Source of the DNA: an uncultured virus (IMG/VR IMGVR_UViG_3300035698_035315)
Taxonomy: Duplodnaviria > Heunggongvirae > Uroviricota > Caudoviricetes
Reading direction: 5' to 3' (one strand)
Virus record (IMG/VR): IMGVR_UViG_3300035698_035315
Location: 51,703 to 71,702 of that record
DNA length: 20,000 bases
The translations under genes and the position numbers were made by a program. A model generated the notes under the pieces. That model saw only the letters and a program-made list of their open reading frames with translations. It was not told where the DNA came from and did not search any database. Positions 10,404 through 20,000 of this stretch are shown here, in pieces. The stretch's first letter is position 1; every line of letters begins with the position of its first letter.

Positions 10404-12689
10404 ATGCCAGCAAGACGTTGCACCTCAGAGTCATGTTTGTTGGAAGCGGCTCACAAGAGTCGTCTTTTTTCTTTAGAACTTCCTGTTGCTGACATTTTAC
10501 ACAATCCGCAACGGGAATGGTTGATTCGTTCGTTGGGCAATCGAAAGCGTGTAGCATCTGATCGTAAGATCTCGGTTGATTGGAAAAAGTTCAACGTAGA
10601 AGACTATTTTTTCACTCATTGTACAATCGTTTGTTCGGTTGTCACAGCTTCAAACGGGTACTACATAGAGCCTCCTTGTGATGAGCTTGTGAACAACAAT
10701 GGAAATGCTTGGAATAACGAAGTTTTGTTATCCACGTTTAGGTCATTTGTTGGGGCTGAGAACTATTTTGAACACATGCAGGCGCCTGAGCTTTCTAAAG
10801 GAAAGATTTTAGATGCGGTTATACGCCCAGTAAACTATAAGGGCAAGAATGGCAAAACAGCCGATATTTACTATACAGATATTTTGGTAGCAACTGACCG
10901 CAAGCACATTGATTTGGTAGAGCGGATTGAGAAAGGCGAGTTGAATACATTATCCATGGGCTGTTTTGAAGCTGGTACTTTGGTAACTATGGCTAATGGC
11001 ACTCGTAAGCCTATTGAGACTATAGAAAAAGGCGAGCGAGTAATTAGTCATCGTGGTTATGCAAGAGAAGTATTGCGTCCAATTAAAACGCAATGGCTTG
11101 GCGATATGTACAAGGTTCATGTTGAAGGAAGACCTGAGCCGATAGTTTGTACTGGGAATCATAAGTTTTGGTCATGGCAAAGACCTCCGTATTGTGCCTG
11201 TGGTTGTGGGGAATCTTTGCCTGATGCGAGTGTTTGGAATAAGCGAAAAAGTTTGAAAACGTCATTTGTAAATGGCCATAGAATGCGTGTTTTGAATCCG
11301 ATGGTTGAATATAGTGTAAGTGAGAAAGAACGACGGCTGGCGATTTTGGACGAGGCGGCGCAACCGCATTTTGAATGGAAGGAAGCTCGCGGTCTTGAGG
11401 CAGGAGCCTATCTTACAATTCCAAGTGAATACTCGATTGGCTCAGAAGATGTTTCTGTTGCTCGTGCTCGTTTGTTGGGTCTTTATTTGGCAGAGGGTTC
11501 AATAAACAACTGTGGTGGCTATAAATCAGTTGGGTTTACTTATTCACTCTATGAGAAAGATACTCTTGCTCAAGAGACAAAAGAACTGCTTGCTAAAGAG
11601 TTTGGAGTCGAATCATCAGTTTATGAACGAAGTGACAGAAATACGTGTGAAACCAGAACACACAAGAATGATTTTGTTACAGAATGGTTTCAAAGTCATG
11701 GCGGGCATTATTCTTGGGCTAAGGCTATTACTGAGGGTGTATTGCATTGGCCGCTTGATGCGTTACGAGCACTTGTCGGTGGATGGCTTGATGGTGATGG
11801 GTGTATGCATGAGGGCGGTCGTAAACGAATTATAGGTGTTACTGTTAGTGCTGACTTGGCGAGTCAGATAAGTCTTATTTTGGCTCGTTTGGGAATCTAT
11901 CATACGTGGAATGTGAAGGATGAATATGAGTCTGTTGAAAATGGAGTTATTGTTCCGCATCGTAAAAGCCACTATATTACAATTCCTTCAAGTGTTGTTC
12001 ATTTAGTAACACCATTTACAATGCGGTGGAATGATGGTGACCCAAGGCCAATTCACTCGCGTTGTCATATTCAGCCATCTTCAGAGAACGTAGTTGTGCG
12101 CGTGAAGAAGGTTGAACAGTTACGTCCGATACATGATGATAATGAACTATCGACAGTATATTGTCTTGAAGTTGAAGAAGAGCATAGTCTGTTAGTTGGT
12201 GGTAGTGTAGGAGTTCAGAACTGCGTCGCCCATTGGGTTACATGTAGTAAATGTGGCAAAGAGATAGCTGATGAGAAAGACAATTGTGAGCATATCAATA
12301 AAGAGTTGATGACATACTTTACGGATGATAAAGGTGTCAAACGTATAACAGCAGAACTCTGTGGGCGCACCTTTGAGTCGAATGGAAAAAGAGTAGGGGA
12401 CCAAGAATCTGTTCAGTTTATTGAGGCAAGTTGGGTTGAGCGTCCGGCTTTTACAGGGGCAGTTTTGAATTACTATGTTAGTGATATTCCAGAAGAGAAG
12501 AAGGCGAGTCTTCTGGAATACTCTTCGATGGACACGATGTATACCAATCTTGCCCAACTGAGGGTTGCTGATACAACTGGGATGATGGCGGTTCGTCTTG
12601 CCAAGGAAGAAGTGAAACGTTTGAATCTTGTCTATCTTGTTAATCGTGTAGCAATGAATGGTGTTAAATTCAGAAAGAAGGAGGCTTGA
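10404..12689 (+). CDS. Prohead (capsid maturation) protease precursor with intein; about 341 aa after splicing
   Basis: Exteins show 'YFEH...KGKILDA', 'IEKGELNTLSMG|C' (putative catalytic Ser), 'CSKCG...CEH' and 'FIEASWVERPAFTGA', as in HK97-type phage maturation proteases. Lies between the portal and scaffold/MCP genes. Confidence 0.8.
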   Translation: MPARRCTSESCLLEAAHKSRLFSLELPVADILHNPQREWLIRSLGNRKRVASDRKISVDWKKFNVEDYFFTHCTIVCSVVTASNGYYIEPPCDELVNNNGNAWNNEVLLSTFRSFVGAENYFEHMQAPELSKGKILDAVIRPVNYKGKNGKTADIYYTDILVATDRKHIDLVERIEKGELNTLSMGCFEAGTLVTMANGTRKPIETIEKGERVISHRGYAREVLRPIKTQWLGDMYKVHVEGRPEPIVCTGNHKFWSWQRPPYCACGCGESLPDASVWNKRKSLKTSFVNGHRMRVLNPMVEYSVSEKERRLAILDEAAQPHFEWKEARGLEAGAYLTIPSEYSIGSEDVSVARARLLGLYLAEGSINNCGGYKSVGFTYSLYEKDTLAQETKELLAKEFGVESSVYERSDRNTCETRTHKNDFVTEWFQSHGGHYSWAKAITEGVLHWPLDALRALVGGWLDGDGCMHEGGRKRIIGVTVSADLASQISLILARLGIYHTWNVKDEYESVENGVIVPHRKSHYITIPSSVVHLVTPFTMRWNDGDPRPIHSRCHIQPSSENVVVRVKKVEQLRPIHDDNELSTVYCLEVEEEHSLLVGGSVGVQNCVAHWVTCSKCGKEIADEKDNCEHINKELMTYFTDDKGVKRITAELCGRTFESNGKRVGDQESVQFIEASWVERPAFTGAVLNYYVSDIPEEKKASLLEYSSMDTMYTNLAQLRVADTTGMMAVRLAKEEVKRLNLVYLVNRVAMNGVKFRKKEA
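10962..12221 (+). mobile_element. 420-aa intein with a LAGLIDADG homing endonuclease
   Basis: Block A 'CFEAGTLVTMANG', block B 'CTGNHKF', LAGLIDADG motifs 'LLGLYLAEGS' and 'LVGGWLDGDG', block F 'VYCLEVEEEHSL', C-terminus 'VQN|C'. Confidence 0.93.
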
Positions 12690-13812: not shown

Positions 13813-13898
13813 TCTCTCTTTTTTATTCTCTCTTAGTGTAGAAGTAGAAGCCTGTTGACTTTCAGGGTTATTTGACCCAAGTTAGAAAGGAGATACGG

Positions 13899-14882
13899 AT
13901 GGTCCGTCGAAGAATTACTCGGATTGGAAAGAAAAAGCCGCGTAGTCTTGTTGCTGAAATTGCGGCTGTGGAAAAACAATTGGGAATGTATTCTCAGGAC
14001 GATGACTTAGACGATGATCTTTTAGAAGATGAATTAGAAGATGACTTAGAAGATGACTTAGAAGATCTTTTAGAAGACGACTTAGAAGACGACTTAGAAG
14101 ATGAATTAGAAGACGACTTAGAAGATGATCTTTTAGAAGATGAATTAGAAGATGATCTTTTAGAAGATGACTTAGAAGACGACTTAGAAGACGACTTAGA
14201 AGACGATTTGCTGATAGACGAGTCCATCTTGTCACAAGACGAAGATGAAGATGCCGAAGAAGACTACGAAGATGCCAAAGACGAAGAAGATGAAATTGAT
14301 GACGAGATTGAAGTTGAGGACGATGAAGATATTGAAGCTATGCTTTATTCAGAAGATGAAGAGGCTTCAGAGGAACTTATCGAAGAAGAATTCAATGTAA
14401 TGTCTCAAGACGATGACGACGACGATGACGACGATGATGACGATGATGACGACGATGATGACGACGATGATGACGACGACGACGACGACGACGACGACGA
14501 TGATGACGACGACGACGACGATGACGATGATGATGAAGACGATGACGATGAGATTGCTTGTGTAACATCGAGGCGCAATTCTTCTCGCAGGCGAAGGAAA
14601 GCTTCACGTCGCAGGCGTTCTAGCGAAGAAGAGCCTGGCATAGAAGACGAGATTACTCAGGATTCTCTTAGTGATGTTGAAGACGAGCGTGGCAAAGAAG
14701 ATTTGGCGACTGAACCTTCGACGCTATCAACAGCCCCAACTTCTTGCACTGCACGTTATCAGGAAGCATCGAAGCGTCTTGACAGGGTGGCAAGTTACTT
14801 TGAGAATCAAGGTCGTAAAGATTTGGCTTTGCGAGTAGATAGGCTGGCAGACGCGGTTGATGCTTTGCTGCCGAACAAATAA
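13899..14882 (+). CDS. Extremely acidic scaffold/core-like protein (327 aa)
   Basis: AAAGGAG SD before ATG 13899. EDDL repeats and a 42-Asp run, with Arg-rich patches and a C-terminal helical segment. Confidence 0.75.
   Translation: MVRRRITRIGKKKPRSLVAEIAAVEKQLGMYSQDDDLDDDLLEDELEDDLEDDLEDLLEDDLEDDLEDELEDDLEDDLLEDELEDDLLEDDLEDDLEDDLEDDLLIDESILSQDEDEDAEEDYEDAKDEEDEIDDEIEVEDDEDIEAMLYSEDEEASEELIEEEFNVMSQDDDDDDDDDDDDDDDDDDDDDDDDDDDDDDDDDDDDDDDDDDEDDDDEIACVTSRRNSSRRRRKASRRRRSSEEEPGIEDEITQDSLSDVEDERGKEDLATEPSTLSTAPTSCTARYQEASKRLDRVASYFENQGRKDLALRVDRLADAVDALLPNK
13998..14213 (+). repeat. Coding minisatellite of 12/15-nt units (GAAGAYGAHTTA) encoding EDDL/EDEL/EDDLL
   Basis: Tandem repeats read directly from the sequence. 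Confidence 0.92.
14409..14552 (+). repeat. GAC/GAT trinucleotide run encoding D42-E-D4-E
   Basis: 14409-14534 is 42 consecutive Asp codons. Confidence 0.95.
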
Positions 14883-14925
14883 GTCAAGTTCATCTTGTGA
14901 AAAGGTCGAAAGAAAGGAGAGAATA

Positions 14926-15882
14926 ATGTCGAGGCGACGGAATCGTTTAACGGCTAGTAATCGTCGCAGAGAACGTAAGGCTGTTGAGGACAGCATTCCT
15001 TATCCCGGAACGGTTAACCAACCGGATCGTCGGTTTAAGAAATGCCAAGAGTATAACACGTTTGAGCAGACTGTAAACCACGAACTCCCAGATATGCGGA
15101 CAGAGTGGAAAGAAGATGCTCATGATGAAATCGGTTTTGGTATTCCTGAAGCTGGTGGGCCTACTGTTGCCAGCATCAAGGCTGCGGCTTCCAAAGCTGT
15201 GAAGCTGGCAGTTTTGCTTCTCGGGGATAAGGTCAAAGAACAGGTTATTGAGAATCAGGCTCGCGACTTCATGAAGCTTGGCAATAAGTGTCTTGATAGG
15301 GCTCTGAAGCGCTTTGCTCAGACCGAGGACATTTACGCTGCTGATGAAGATAAAGATGAAGGCGAAAAACAGGAAGAAAAGGACGAAAAGGTTGAAAAGG
15401 AAGAAATAAAGGAAGAAAAGGTAGAGGAAGAAAAGGACGAAGAGGCTGACGAGGAAAAGGAAAAAGAGGCTTCTGAGGACGAAGAGAAAAAGAAAAAGGA
15501 CGAAGAAGAGGCTGAGGCAGAGGCTGCTAAGACAATCCAAGAAGAGGCTGAAGAAAAGGCCAAAGAAAAAGAAGCAAGCGCGGCTGAGTTTGACATAGAG
15601 TTGCAGTCAATGTCGGATGAAGGCATGCGTGAAGATGCAGCCGCCGACAAGGTACTTGCAAGTCTCTATGCTCAGGACGAAGAAGCCGACGAAGAAGCCG
15701 ACGAAGATGAATCCGGCGATGAAGATGAGGGAAAAGAAAAGACCTCATCGAAGAAAGCTACAAAGCAGGGCGTCAAAAAGCTTGGCGGCCAGCCGAAAAA
15801 AGCATCTGTTTCGTCAGATGATGCTGTCAATTTGAGCGAGCTTTGGGTAGACGCTCCTGACGTGGGCGATGTGTTTAAGTAA
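14926..15882 (+). CDS. Putative capsid scaffolding protein (318 aa)
   Basis: AAAGGAG SD before ATG 14926. Glu/Lys-rich, coiled-coil-like, with a C-terminal 'LSELWVDAPDVGDVFK'. Directly upstream of the decoration and MCP genes. Confidence 0.6.
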   Translation: MSRRRNRLTASNRRRERKAVEDSIPYPGTVNQPDRRFKKCQEYNTFEQTVNHELPDMRTEWKEDAHDEIGFGIPEAGGPTVASIKAAASKAVKLAVLLLGDKVKEQVIENQARDFMKLGNKCLDRALKRFAQTEDIYAADEDKDEGEKQEEKDEKVEKEEIKEEKVEEEKDEEADEEKEKEASEDEEKKKKDEEEAEAEAAKTIQEEAEEKAKEKEASAAEFDIELQSMSDEGMREDAAADKVLASLYAQDEEADEEADEDESGDEDEGKEKTSSKKATKQGVKKLGGQPKKASVSSDDAVNLSELWVDAPDVGDVFK

Positions 15883-16475: not shown

Positions 16476-19400
16476 ATGTCCGTAGACAATAAGACTAAGC
16501 AGGAAATCATCAGCCAATACATCAAGACTGCCGCTGGCCGGCAGCGTCTTGCGGCGAGCATTAACTGAATGGTGCTCGTAAAATCCGGTAAATTGCTGGG
16601 ACACCCTTAGACATGAAAATCAACGGCATAACAATTAGCGAAACGAGATTGACGAAGCTGACGGCTATATTAGCTAATAAGGTTTATAGTTACATGTCCA
16701 AGGACAATCAGCATCCGAGCCTTGTTGGAAACGACGAGGAAGGTTCAACGACTGGAGACGAGGCTAAGGGCCAAAAAGCCTATGCCGGTAAGGTCTCGCC
16801 TGCATTCGGTAACGATGTGGGTATGCCGGGCATTCTTGAGAAAAAGAATGGTGATACAGTCTGAACTCATCGGTAACGGTGAGAGGTAGGTTGAGAGACC
16901 TATCCGCCTTGTGCAAGCAAGGTTGTAACAGAATGGATTCAGCCTCTTCGTCGGCGTCGGGACTACACTTCCGTGGGATAACGTACCGTCTCACGTTAAA
17001 CTCGGTAAATTGCTGGAAACTCATGGAGAAGTTGTAATGCGTGAGGTTTTGAACAAAGAGTTGCTAACAAAACTCTACGTTCTTGATAAGAGAACTGATA
17101 GAGAAATTGCTGGCATACTTAATGTTCATCGTGCATCAGTTACAGTGGCTCGAAAGAGACATGGAATAAAAAAGATTAGAGAGTATGAGAGGAAAAATCT
17201 CTCTGATTTGTCTGATGTGCAGACTTCATTGATCGACGGTTCCATATTAGGTGATGGAGCAATAGAACGTAACCATTCAAGTTCGTATGTTTTTTCTTTT
17301 GGACACTCACAAAAACAACACAGTTATGCTAAGATGAAAGCGAAGATTCTTGGAGATTATTTTAGTAATGTTAGAATTGACAAGAAAGGCATGATGCGTG
17401 TCAGGTCGATTGTGCATCCTGTCTTTGGTGAATATCGAAAAGAATGTTATATCAACATAGATGGCAAGTGGCATAAAAGAATGCCCAAATCGTTATTGGA
17501 CAGATTGAATCTTTACTCGCTTTCGGTGTGGTACTGTGATGATGGTTGTCAGAGTGGCAATCAGGTTTGGTTTTGTGTGGGGTGTCCAGTTGAAGAAGAC
17601 CGCGAGAACGCAATTTCGGTTATTGAAGATAAATTTGGACTTTCTTGTTCTATTCATAAGATGAGCAGGGAAGAATGTTGGAGACTTTGTGTGTTAAAGC
17701 GTTCTCAAGAGAAATTTTTTGATATTGTGAGTGGTTTCGTTAGCATTGCAATACCGTACAAGATACCTAACTGGTATCAAGTGCGGCATGACAATCAGCA
17801 GCCAAGCCTTTTTGGAAACGAAAAGGTGGGTTCAACGACTGGTGGAAGCCTAAACTCTGATAAAGAGCATGGCGATAACACACGCCTTGATTGGGAGACT
17901 AATCAGGGTACGCCGGGTGCCTGTATGATGAAACAGGTGAAGATACAGTCTGAACAGCAGTTAATTCTTGGTAGCTGTTGAGTCTGGCAGAAATGACCAG
18001 AACGGTATCTTGAAAAAGATACTTGTAACAGATTGCGCAAGGCGTTCTTCGTCGAACAGTTGCCCGATGGTGCTTTGCCGATTTACGACAAAGACCCAAA
18101 CGTCACCGCTTATGTGATCGGTGAGGAAGGCGAGAACATCGTTGCGGTTGCAAAGCCAAAGCGTGTTCTTTTCCCGCTGTTTGAAATTGCGTCGAATCCT
18201 GAAATTCAACTCACTGAGGTTAAGTCTCGTCGTTTTGACCTTAATACCCATGGGGTCGCTGTTTAGAGATAAACAGATAAAAATATCCCGTAAATTGCTG
18301 GAACCCAAATGAGTAACGAATTTTCTGAAACTATGATGAAGACAAATTTGAACAATGATGAGGTTCGCAGTCTATATCAGAATGGTTTTTCTGATATTCA
18401 GATTGCCAAACAACTTCATGTTGGTCGTGCTAAACTTCGTGCTTGGCGTGAATCTAATGGTATTCCGTCAAAAAAGAAGGTTGTGCAAAAATTATCTTTA
18501 TCAGAATTGCAGAAAATTGTAGAAGGGCTAAATGCCGGTCAAACACTTACCAACATATCAAGTGAATTGAACATGAGTCGTGTAACCTTAGCTAAGATGA
18601 TCAAGAAGGCGGGACTTTCTTACAAAGAATACCGTCCTGCTCATCCAGTTGAGATTGACGATTATGTTCTTACACAAGTTCAAAAAGAAGTTCTTTTGGG
18701 TGATATGTTTGGAGATGGCGGACTAGTGCCTACTAGCAAAAAAAATGCTTATTATCAATGCGCTCATAGTATTGGTCAAAAGTCATTTTTATACTGGAAG
18801 GCGAATGTTTTCCATCCTTTGACTTCCAGAGTAGGAAGTTATAAGACCAAAGATGGTGAATACGTGCGAATGGGGACGTGGACAAGTGGTTGTCTCAAAG
18901 CTTATCATCAAGATTTTTATCCTGATGGAAAAGGCAATAAGACAATTACAGTCTCACTTGCAAATCGTATGACACCATTGGCATTAGCTGTTTGGTACAT
19001 GGGCGATGGTTCTATCAACAGGAATACCGGAGTATTTCATGTTGGAAGGCAAATTGAGTTTTATCAAGTAGCAGAAATTCTATCTGATAAGTTTGAAATG
19101 CTGTTGAAGGCATGTCGTTATGAACGTGAATGGCATCTTAGGGTTATGAATCCTGAAAAGTTTTTCACGCTTATATCGCCATATCTTCTTGAATCATTCG
19201 GGTATAAAGTTCCCAAAGCCTATCGTGAACTTGTTGGCAATCAGCAGCCGAGCATTCTTCCAATAATGGAGCAGACTGAACGGATTGGTGAAAACCGATT
19301 CCTCAGTGTGTCGAAAGAGAATGAAGGTTCAGAGACTGGTGGAAGCCTAAACTCTGATAAAGAGCATGGCAATAACACACGCCTTGTGAAGTTATCACAG

Positions 19401-20000
19401 GGTATGCGGGACATCCATTCCTCGTTGGATGAAGATACAGTCCACTCTACATCACTTCGATAAGATGTAGGTTGCATTGAGAGAAGTGTAGATCTGGCGA
19501 AGTCGGAGATTCAGGCTGAGGAAGACCGTAAGGTGTTCGCAGTCATGGACGCTCTCGCAACGGACCCGACGAACCCCAACCCGGACATTCCGGTAACGGG
19601 CAACCTGACGGCCAATGCGTTGGCAGATGCTTTTGCCAACATCGAGCGTACCGACATTCGGGTCGCTAACGTATTTCTCAATGCCAAGGATTATGCAGAC
19701 CTACGTAAGTGGGACCGCGATACCCTTGACATCGAGACACAGCAAGTCTTGCTGAAGACTGGCCTGATGGCAACGCTTTGGGGTGCGAAGCTTATCGTAT
19801 CTCGTATTGTTCCTGAAGGAACGGTTTATGTGTGTGGAGAACCTGAGTTCTTCGGACGCATCCCAGTAAGAACAGAGCTTACTGTTCTCTCCGCTGACGA
19901 CCCTAAGAACAGGCTGATTGGTTTCTCTGTTTTCGAGAACATCGGAATTGGGGCATACAACCCATTTTCGCTTCAACGCCTGGTTATCACGAGAGTCTAA
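16476..20000 (+). CDS. Major capsid protein, spliced: join(16476-16561,16936-16978,18036-18241,19475-20000), 286 aa
   Basis: GAGGAG SD and ATG 16476. Exons total 861 nt and join in frame: ...RQRLAASM/IQPLRRRRDYTSVG/RKAFFVEQLPDGALPIYDKD...RRFDL/IERSVDLAKSEIQAEEDRKVFAVMD...ITRV*. HK97-fold-like features are present (backbone helix, 'LWGAKLIVSRIVPEGTVY'). Confidence 0.88.
16562..16935 (+). ncRNA. Group I intron 1 (374 nt, no intact endonuclease) in the MCP gene
   Basis: P1 GCGAGCAU/GUGCUCGU with a U.G wobble, P10 CUGAAU/AUUCAG, P 'AAATTGCTGG', Q 'AATCAGCA', R 'GTTCAACGACTG' (16743), S 'GATACAGTC' (16853), terminal G16935. Confidence 0.92.
16979..18035 (+). ncRNA. Group I intron 2 (1057 nt) with an endonuclease gene
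   Basis: P at 17007, P5 TCATG/CATGA, Q at 17793, R at 17830, S at 17940. It ends TTGTAACAGATTG, like intron 1 (TTGTAACAGAATG). The 5' boundary is set by reading frame and is uncertain by 1 nt. Confidence 0.88.
17037..17981 (+). CDS. Intron-encoded homing endonuclease, N-terminal HTH plus LAGLIDADG_2-type domain
   Basis: GGAG SD then ATG 17037. HTH 'TDREIAGILNVHRASV'; motifs 'LIDGSILGDGAI' and 'LSVWYCDDG'. Confidence 0.88.
   Translation: MREVLNKELLTKLYVLDKRTDREIAGILNVHRASVTVARKRHGIKKIREYERKNLSDLSDVQTSLIDGSILGDGAIERNHSSSYVFSFGHSQKQHSYAKMKAKILGDYFSNVRIDKKGMMRVRSIVHPVFGEYRKECYINIDGKWHKRMPKSLLDRLNLYSLSVWYCDDGCQSGNQVWFCVGCPVEEDRENAISVIEDKFGLSCSIHKMSREECWRLCVLKRSQEKFFDIVSGFVSIAIPYKIPNWYQVRHDNQQPSLFGNEKVGSTTGGSLNSDKEHGDNTRLDWETNQGTPGACMMKQVKIQSEQQLILGSC
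18242..19474 (+). ncRNA. Group I intron 3 (1233 nt) with an endonuclease gene
   Basis: P1 GACCU/GGGUC with U.G, P2 CTGTTT/AAACAG, P3 TCCCGTA/TGCGGGA, P at 18292, Q at 19239, R 'GTTCAGAGACTG' (19327), S at 19432, terminal G19474. The junction CT|C restores the frame. Confidence 0.92.
18309..19463 (+). CDS. Intron-encoded homing endonuclease, two HTH segments plus LAGLIDADG_2-type domain
   Basis: HTH-like 'SDIQIAKQLHVGRAKL' and 'TLTNISSELNMSRVTL'; motifs 'VLLGDMFGDGGL' and 'LAVWYMGDGS'. Confidence 0.88.
   Translation: MSNEFSETMMKTNLNNDEVRSLYQNGFSDIQIAKQLHVGRAKLRAWRESNGIPSKKKVVQKLSLSELQKIVEGLNAGQTLTNISSELNMSRVTLAKMIKKAGLSYKEYRPAHPVEIDDYVLTQVQKEVLLGDMFGDGGLVPTSKKNAYYQCAHSIGQKSFLYWKANVFHPLTSRVGSYKTKDGEYVRMGTWTSGCLKAYHQDFYPDGKGNKTITVSLANRMTPLALAVWYMGDGSINRNTGVFHVGRQIEFYQVAEILSDKFEMLLKACRYEREWHLRVMNPEKFFTLISPYLLESFGYKVPKAYRELVGNQQPSILPIMEQTERIGENRFLSVSKENEGSETGGSLNSDKEHGNNTRLVKLSQGMRDIHSSLDEDTVHSTSLR

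Follow-up and report, generated by a model that had tools for sequence, protein, structure and literature searches.

Organization and identity of the capsid gene

The DNA analyzed here, referred to as the window, is a stretch of 20,000 nt from an uncultured virus of the Caudoviricetes (IMG/VR record IMGVR_UViG_3300035698_035315, positions 51,703 to 71,702). This study concerns the gene at its 3' end, which codes for the major capsid protein (MCP) and lies in four exons separated by three predicted group I introns, all on the forward strand. Exon 1 (16476..16561, 86 nt), preceded by a GGAG-type ribosome-binding site, encodes residues 1–28 and two bases of Met29; exon 2 (16936..16978, 43 nt) runs from the last base of Met29 to Gly43; exon 3 (18036..18241, 206 nt) runs from Arg44 to two bases of Leu112; and exon 4 (19475..20000, 526 nt) extends from the last base of Leu112 to Val286 and ends with TAA. 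Introns 1 and 3 follow codon positions 29.2 and 112.2, respectively, and intron 2 separates codons 43 and 44. When joined, the four exons gave 861 nt consisting of 286 codons and TAA, without an internal stop. The open reading frame (ORF) list contained only fragments of the gene, at 16476–16568 (30 aa), 18033–18266 (77 aa), and 19533–20000 (155 aa). The introns (374, 1057, and 1233 nt) occupied 75.6% of the 3525-nt gene span. The fusion of four exons into a 286-aa ORF, the fragmented ORF track, and an intron share of about 76% had been proposed in a first-pass annotation of the window, and all three could be reproduced.

A search with exon 4 alone retrieved 1506 proteins (E ≤ 0.001), and many of the best 120 were exactly 286 aa long with approximately 90% identity. 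The joined protein was aligned with 108 listed homologues of 280–292 aa; the alignment required no gap in any of these full-length proteins, or in the joined protein itself, within 6 residues of a junction. The N-terminal 111 residues were 80–91% identical in the 25 homologues shown, and the joined protein was approximately 88–93% identical to intact homologues. The residues at the three junctions (..AAS-M-IQPL.., ..SVG-RKAF.., and ..RFD-L-IERS..) agreed with the family consensus. In a contig of sequencing run X5, exon 1 was followed directly by the 43-nt exon 2 and by the first 8 bases of exon 3 without any intron; junctions 1 and 2 are thus fixed at the DNA level, because the exons are joined there exactly as predicted. 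Together with the 108 colinear homologues, this contig confirmed to the nucleotide the junctions 16561|16936, 16978|18036, and 18241|19475 of the first-pass annotation. Shifting junction 1 by one base was rejected, as it would give Ile at a position occupied by Met in all the aligned homologues shown.

A profile of 28 MCP homologues matched 6wkk_A, the solved structure of the phage G gp27 major capsid protein, over the full length (E 2.6e-75), with profile positions 3–281 aligned to chain residues 4–279. The match to the PHROG major head protein had an E value of 4.8e-28, and Pfam Phage_capsid scored above its cut-off (24.2) in two of the three MCP homologues tested (31.7 and 31.4 bits). By tblastn, exon 4 had its nearest named relatives in an uncultured 485-kb phage, with 66% identity, in Tunturiibacter phage Tunturi_5, with 47%, and in Bacillus phage G gp27, with 34%; the matches in Tunturi_5 and phage G are annotated as major head or capsid protein. 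The AlphaFold model of a 92%-identical homologue, produced with a 28-row alignment, was poor (mean pLDDT 55.6). Judged by homology, the gene is an HK97-fold major capsid protein gene of the phage G gp27 type; the first-pass annotation had likewise called it a major capsid protein gene. This coding reading is secure because the joined frame is open, all 108 homologues are colinear, and the profile matches 6wkk_A.

In unspliced RNA, translation from the exons would reach a stop 2, 0, and 8 codons into introns 1, 2, and 3, respectively, with intron 2 opening with an in-frame UAA. Inteins were considered as another explanation for the inserts and rejected, given these early stops and since the Pfam matches to the insert ORFs included no intein family.

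Predicted ribozyme structure of the three introns

Intron 1 (16562..16935, 374 nt) lacked an intact endonuclease gene. Intron 2 (16979..18035, 1057 nt) and intron 3 (18242..19474, 1233 nt) each carried such a gene in the P5 loop, and intron 3 additionally contained a P2 hairpin and a 51-nt insertion in P6. Each intron opens with UAA and has G as its last base (G16935, G18035, and G19474). Four core elements were present once and in order in each intron, namely J3/4-P4 TAAATTGCTGG, P4'-P6 AATCAGCAKCC, J6/7-P7 GGTTCARMGACT, and J8/7-P7' GATACAGTC. Across the 71.7-kb record as a whole, J3/4-P4, P4'-P6, and J6/7-P7 occurred nowhere outside the three introns, and J8/7-P7' had one extra chance match. 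Similarly, nhmmer profiles detected no further member of this intron family in the 71.7-kb record, leaving the capsid gene as its sole target there.

The relationship among the introns was evaluated by leave-one-out nhmmer searches, in which a profile built without a given intron was used to search for that intron. Intron 1 was recovered with E values of 2.1e-37 and 6.6e-11, intron 2 with 1.4e-45 and 7.8e-09, and intron 3 with 2.4e-20 (3' core) and 5.7e-4 (5' part). The covariance-model check recommended in the first-pass annotation gave a divided result. Against Rfam RF00028 (gathering score 50 bits), intron 1 scored 51.4 bits, while intron 2 reached 23.3 bits (E 0.006) on its 3' core and intron 3 gave no match. 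The lower scores of introns 2 and 3 can be attributed to the long ORF insertions in P5 (0.8–0.95 kb), which the model does not span.

Helices P1, P3, P4, P5, P6, P7, P7.2, P8, and P9 were placed in the three window introns and in two introns of related interrupted genotypes, intron 1 of L061 and intron 2 of L065. All scored helices were fully paired in these five distinct introns, and one helix with strands of unequal length was left unscored. The sequences of P5, P8, and P9 were unrelated between introns though paired. Compensatory changes included a G-C to A-U replacement in P7 of L065 and a G-C to C-G replacement in P3 of intron 3. The first-pass claim of three group I cores could therefore be upheld, as P3 to P9 are paired in all three introns and each was recovered in the leave-one-out search. 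When folded freely, intron 1 gave −132.9 kcal/mol (z −4.33), and none of 100 shuffled sequences was as stable. This unconstrained fold recovered P1, P3, P4, P5, P6, P7.1, P7.2, P8, and P9 and did not reproduce the long-range P7; it serves as a partial control, since the helices had been chosen by eye.

All three introns had approximately 70 nt of hairpins between P7 and P3', including a P7.2 of 7–8 bp with compensatory changes. Extra P7.1/P7.2 hairpins at this position are the architecture of subgroup IA, typical of phage introns, a subgroup reportedly defined in 1990. The P1 helix of intron 1 was formed by 16556-16563/16570-16577 with U16561-G as the splice-site pair, and that of intron 3 by 18237-18242/18252-18257 with U18241-G. 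In intron 1, P10 was a clean helix of 6 bp (16565-16570/16937-16942).

Two matches to the Rfam LOOT RNA (RF03000, cut-off 46.4) remained below threshold on the forward strand, at 17847-17921 (29.2 bits) and 19344-19433 (21.4 bits). Both sit on the P7.1/P7.2 hairpin region of introns 2 and 3. It may be that the LOOT motif is similar to this peripheral group I domain or has come from it in part. A further sub-threshold match, to PhotoRC-I at 19809-19844 on the reverse strand (21.5 bits, cut-off 45), was antisense to exon 4 and most likely arose by chance.

Predicted splicing and the 5' splice site of intron 2

The window very probably belongs to a phage-G-like huge phage from salt-lake metagenomes, in which the HK97-fold MCP gene is split by three related group I introns that are predicted to be self-splicing. 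By the standard mechanism, guanosine would attack the splice site in P1, the terminal G of the intron would then dock, and the exons would be ligated. All three splicing events would be needed for the capsid mRNA. What the DNA itself shows is the gene structure with its junctions, the homology of the cores, the complementarity of the helices, the endonuclease families, and the alleles lacking introns; that the introns self-splice and home, and that intron 2 is cut accurately behind an A-U pair, is inferred.

The 5' splice site of intron 2 required a correction, because the frame-preserving site lies after A16978 and not after U. In the P1 helix of this intron (16972-16979/16988-16995), A16978, the last exon base, pairs with U16989, and the U-G pair falls at U16979, the first intron base. 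Sites 1 and 3 follow a T that was invariant in all 72 distinct uninterrupted homologous MCP genes among the viral contigs fetched, a sample ranked by protein similarity that does not represent an unbiased frequency. Site 2 follows the third base of Gly43, which in the same 72 genes was A in 10, C in 31, T in 28, and G in 3. In intron 2 of L065, the exon ends in GGU and this U is paired with a guide G. Compared with L065, the window has a synonymous U to A change in the exon base of this glycine codon together with a G to U change in the facing guide base. This paired exon and guide change suggests selection for function. The U-G wobble at the 5' splice site of group I introns is near-universal, and C-G exceptions to it have reportedly been described. 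The literature search found no natural group I intron without U at the 5' splice site or with an A-U pair there.

Several points weigh against the proposed reading. The curated cut-off of RF00028 was reached by just one of the three introns. Because the helices were picked by eye in anchored alignments, their complementarity is partly selected, and no formal covariation statistic accompanies them. P10 was weak or displaced in introns 2 and 3. No RNA run was present among the sequencing runs holding the locus, and the four runs examined consisted of DNA contigs. The most specific point concerns intron 2, whose required splice site follows an A-U pair with the U-G one base inside the intron; in the Anabaena intron, according to the available part of that study, a guide ending in G and a pyrimidine at the splice site are both required.

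These splice-site data would also be expected if intron 2 were impaired in splicing or cut after U16979, yielding a +1 frameshifted message with little or no capsid protein from a genome that is defective or dependent on a helper. The canonical U-G pair is displaced by one base, and the position of the wobble pair reportedly directs cleavage in the Tetrahymena ribozyme. However, the exon change from U to A is matched by the guide change from G to U relative to L065, so that P1 stays paired; intron 2 retains an intact endonuclease gene and all of its core helices; and the identical sequence recurs in several samples over years. A junction moved to follow U16979 was rejected as a candidate because it would either break the frame or produce an intron ending in C with replacement of Arg44, the residue directly after junction 2, which is invariant in the family, and no normal protein would result. 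An impaired or frameshifting intron 2 is thus considered unlikely.

If splicing instead takes place at the frame-preserving site, intron 2 would be a natural example of accurate group I intron cleavage behind an adenosine that forms a Watson-Crick A-U pair; this assignment is plausible but held tentatively. Should intron 2 splice well enough to supply a huge capsid, either the wobble requirement would be relaxed in this subfamily or the adjacent intronic U-G would act as the signal for docking, with a one-base cleavage offset. The A-U site with its matching guide change offers a cheap and direct way to test the strictness of the U-G rule in a naturally occurring intron.

Intron-encoded endonucleases and proposed mobility

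The predicted homing endonuclease gene of intron 2 (HE2; 17037..17981, forward strand) encodes 314 aa with a helix-turn-helix (HTH) domain and a two-motif LAGLIDADG region. It scored 89.9 bits against PF03161 (cut-off 25), as measured on a longer ORF with a TTG start, and was 58% identical to the L065 copy. The gene in intron 3 (HE3; 18309..19463, forward strand) encodes 384 aa with two HTH-like regions and a two-motif LAGLIDADG region. HE3 scored 77.2 bits against PF03161 (LAGLIDADG_2; cut-off 25), showed a weak match to I-SceI (E 0.0014), and was 30% identical to HE2; its start codon lies at the P5 stem. The aligned LAGLIDADG-type motifs, ending in an acidic residue, were ILGDG / WYCDDG and FGDGG / WYMGDG. 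On these matches, HE2 and HE3 are intact genes of the LAGLIDADG_2 family. HE2, HE3, and the endonuclease of L065 intron 1 were paralogues with 26–33% identity.

In all copies, the 3' half of the ribozyme core was read in a single common frame that supplies approximately the last 60 residues of the endonuclease. The overlap between core and coding sequence amounted to approximately 180 nt, at 17790-17981, 19238-19463, and 16700-16864, with the C-terminal tail NQQPSL..GS.TGG.. The third of these segments belongs to intron 1, where an ORF of 83 aa (16613-16864) was recognized as the in-frame deletion remnant of a LAGLIDADG gene that is intact in intron 1 of both L061 and L065. The remnant retains the first approximately 25 codons and the tail, and approximately 750 nt have been deleted in frame relative to those two copies.

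Introns 2 and 3 shared a 61-nt tract covering P7 to P7.1 (17829-17889 / 19326-19386) at 95% identity, the rest being far more diverged; this tract looks as if it arose by a recent gene conversion between two introns of the same gene. The core of intron 1 was nearer to that of L065 intron 2 than to its positional homologue in L061, and this affinity, together with the tract, suggests exchange between introns. Introns 2 and 3 would be mobile by means of the HTH-LAGLIDADG homing endonucleases in their P5 loops, intron 1 has lost its endonuclease by the in-frame deletion, and the three units are paralogues at three sites of one gene that appear to exchange segments. The three paralogous intron/endonuclease units and the shared 61-nt tract suggest ongoing spread and recombination within the MCP gene, and they possibly act as a weapon against co-infecting relatives. 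The G+C content of the introns was 40–47%, compared to 50–60% in the exons.

Scans with HE2 and HE3 as single proteins returned near-identical contigs only. A metagenome scan with the two-sequence HE2 alignment returned only two already known contigs, and a scan with a 21-nt P7/P7.1 motif likewise returned only already known contigs.

Genomic context

The window represents the last 20 kb of the 71.7-kb IMG/VR record, which ends at the MCP stop codon (position 20000). The head module upstream of the MCP gene included a portal-like ORF (21-1880) and a 761-aa ORF with a head-protease match (10404-12686). Just upstream of the MCP gene, two very acidic ORFs were present on the forward strand (13872-14882 and 14857-15882), one with a run of approximately 40 Asp and the other rich in Glu and Lys. 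Neither had a Pfam or PHROGs match, and their position suggests that they are scaffold-like.

IMG/VR classes the record as a provirus with 37% completeness. The fragmentation of the capsid gene probably led to artefactual trimming, which would explain the provirus boundary at the MCP stop. Taken literally, the provirus class and the loss of the intron 1 endonuclease could indicate a decaying pseudogene in a defective prophage, in which the inserts are dead remnants of mobile elements and are not removed. However, the exons contain no stop or frameshift, and the joined protein keeps its high identity to intact homologues; moreover, compensatory pairing is kept in the ribozyme cores, two endonuclease genes are intact, and relatives occur on contigs of 200–600 kb, as is typical of huge lytic phages. 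Decay of this kind is therefore very improbable.

A near-identical contig, L083, continued for at least 6 kb past the MCP stop (6525 onward), and its genes downstream of the MCP gene gave no informative family match.

Alleles, relatives, and persistence

Besides the uninterrupted genes, three interrupted genotypes were found with introns at the same sites: L061 (intron 1), L065 (introns 1 and 2), and the window type (all three). Homologous MCP genes were located on viral contigs of up to 618 kb. The three-intron MCP gene recurred at 99.97–100% identity in two other viral contigs, and the same genotype was also found in contigs of further runs dated 2017–2019. Every run holding the stretch was labelled as salt lake metagenome.

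In runs X2, X4, X5, and X6, contigs were observed that join the 5' core to the 3' core of these introns with 6–18 letters between them and with unrelated flanks. Placed on the window, they correspond to 16586-16607, 17022, and 17790-17807. Such contigs indicate compact ORF-less relatives of the intron family in other genes of the community.

That the assembler wrongly stitched intron sequences of the metagenome into the MCP gene is scarcely credible: related ORF-less introns do occur in the same metagenomes, with contigs joining 16607 to 17790 and 17022 to 17790 over few letters, but three independent assemblies agree at 99.97–100% across all junctions, a 2542-nt Logan contig spans 16400-18619 without a difference, and diverged introns are present at the same sites in L061 and L065.

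A scan with a 16-nt P4'-P6 motif returned at least 120 viral contigs, most of them with a shorter core, and the J3/4-P4 motif was present in 3 of 122. Most of the contigs with the P4'-P6 motif were rejected as members of the same intron family and assigned to other group I introns on account of their shorter core and missing J3/4-P4 motif.

Three truncated MCP homologues of approximately 92% identity (P0003, P0088, and P0097) were observed in the databases. Two of them start inside exon 4 (155 and 151 aa), and a third, of 252 aa, has its start 8 residues ahead of the exon 3 boundary, where its residues resemble the tail of intron 2. The first-pass annotation had anticipated that automated annotation would truncate the gene, and this was found to happen, since the 155- and 151-aa database homologues start at the same internal position as the 155-aa fragment of the window. 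More intron-bearing MCP relatives probably exist.

Significance and comparison with known systems

Unless introns are modelled, capsid-based surveys of phage-G-like huge phages would under-count or mis-size this marker gene; with its default threshold, RF00028 picks up just one of the three MCP introns. The MCP locus also provides a natural series for homing, endonuclease loss, and recombination between introns, as it comprises alleles with 0, 1, 2, and 3 introns, an endonuclease-deleted intron, and paralogous endonucleases at three sites of one conserved gene.

The td, nrdB, and nrdD introns of phage T4 share with the introns described here the P7.1/P7.2 hairpins, an in-frame stop soon after the 5' splice site, and an endonuclease ORF that loops out from the core. 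The T4 intron endonucleases are of the GIY-YIG or HNH type and occupy other loops, whereas a LAGLIDADG gene lies in the P5 loop here and reads through the 3' half of the core. The orf142 of Staphylococcus phage Twort is reportedly a single late gene with three group I introns. Those introns are said to be small, ORF-less, and self-splicing in vitro, whereas two of the three introns in the window carry endonuclease genes.

The first-pass annotation had described phage group I introns as only occasional in virion genes. This rarity was overstated, as capsid-gene introns of LittleE, Tuc2009, and a crAss-like phage are in print. Capsid-gene group I introns are thus already documented, and what the present locus adds is a series of alleles, a set of paralogous endonucleases, and a non-canonical 5' splice site in intron 2.

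In the Jug huge gut phages, the available part of the report (PMC12880540) gives approximately 18 introns per genome, with essential genes such as terL, nrdD, and DNA polymerase split by numerous group I introns, and metatranscriptome reads supporting splicing in 37 of 76 introns. The Jug introns average approximately 206 nt, and the capsid gene is not among the targets named in that part of the report, whereas in the 71.7 kb analyzed here the capsid gene is the only one hit.

For mycobacteriophage LittleE, splicing of an intron in the MCP gene was shown by RT-PCR and N-terminal sequencing (Pope et al. 2013, PMC3706429), and the accessible portion of the same paper cites a capsid-gene intron in the lactococcal phage Tuc2009. 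As far as that portion describes it, LittleE resembles the present case in having a probable group I intron in an HK97-type capsid gene, inserted after U, ending in G, and associated with a LAGLIDADG-like ORF. It differs in having one intron instead of three and in carrying the endonuclease ORF on the opposite strand. Furthermore, LittleE is described as a temperate siphovirus of 106–117 kb, unlike the phage-G-like huge phage proposed here.

Another close counterpart is the crAss-like Zeta-group cMAG OLRF01000054, whose MCP gene lies in five fragments, with the group I introns recognized by means of their endonuclease domains (Yutin et al. 2021, PMC7886860, as given in the available text). In both cases, a metagenomic MCP gene in several pieces is known from DNA alone. 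The phage order and the capsid family are different, and the available text of PMC7886860 gives neither ribozyme structures nor junctions at the nucleotide level for OLRF01000054, whereas the junctions in the window are fixed by intron-less alleles.

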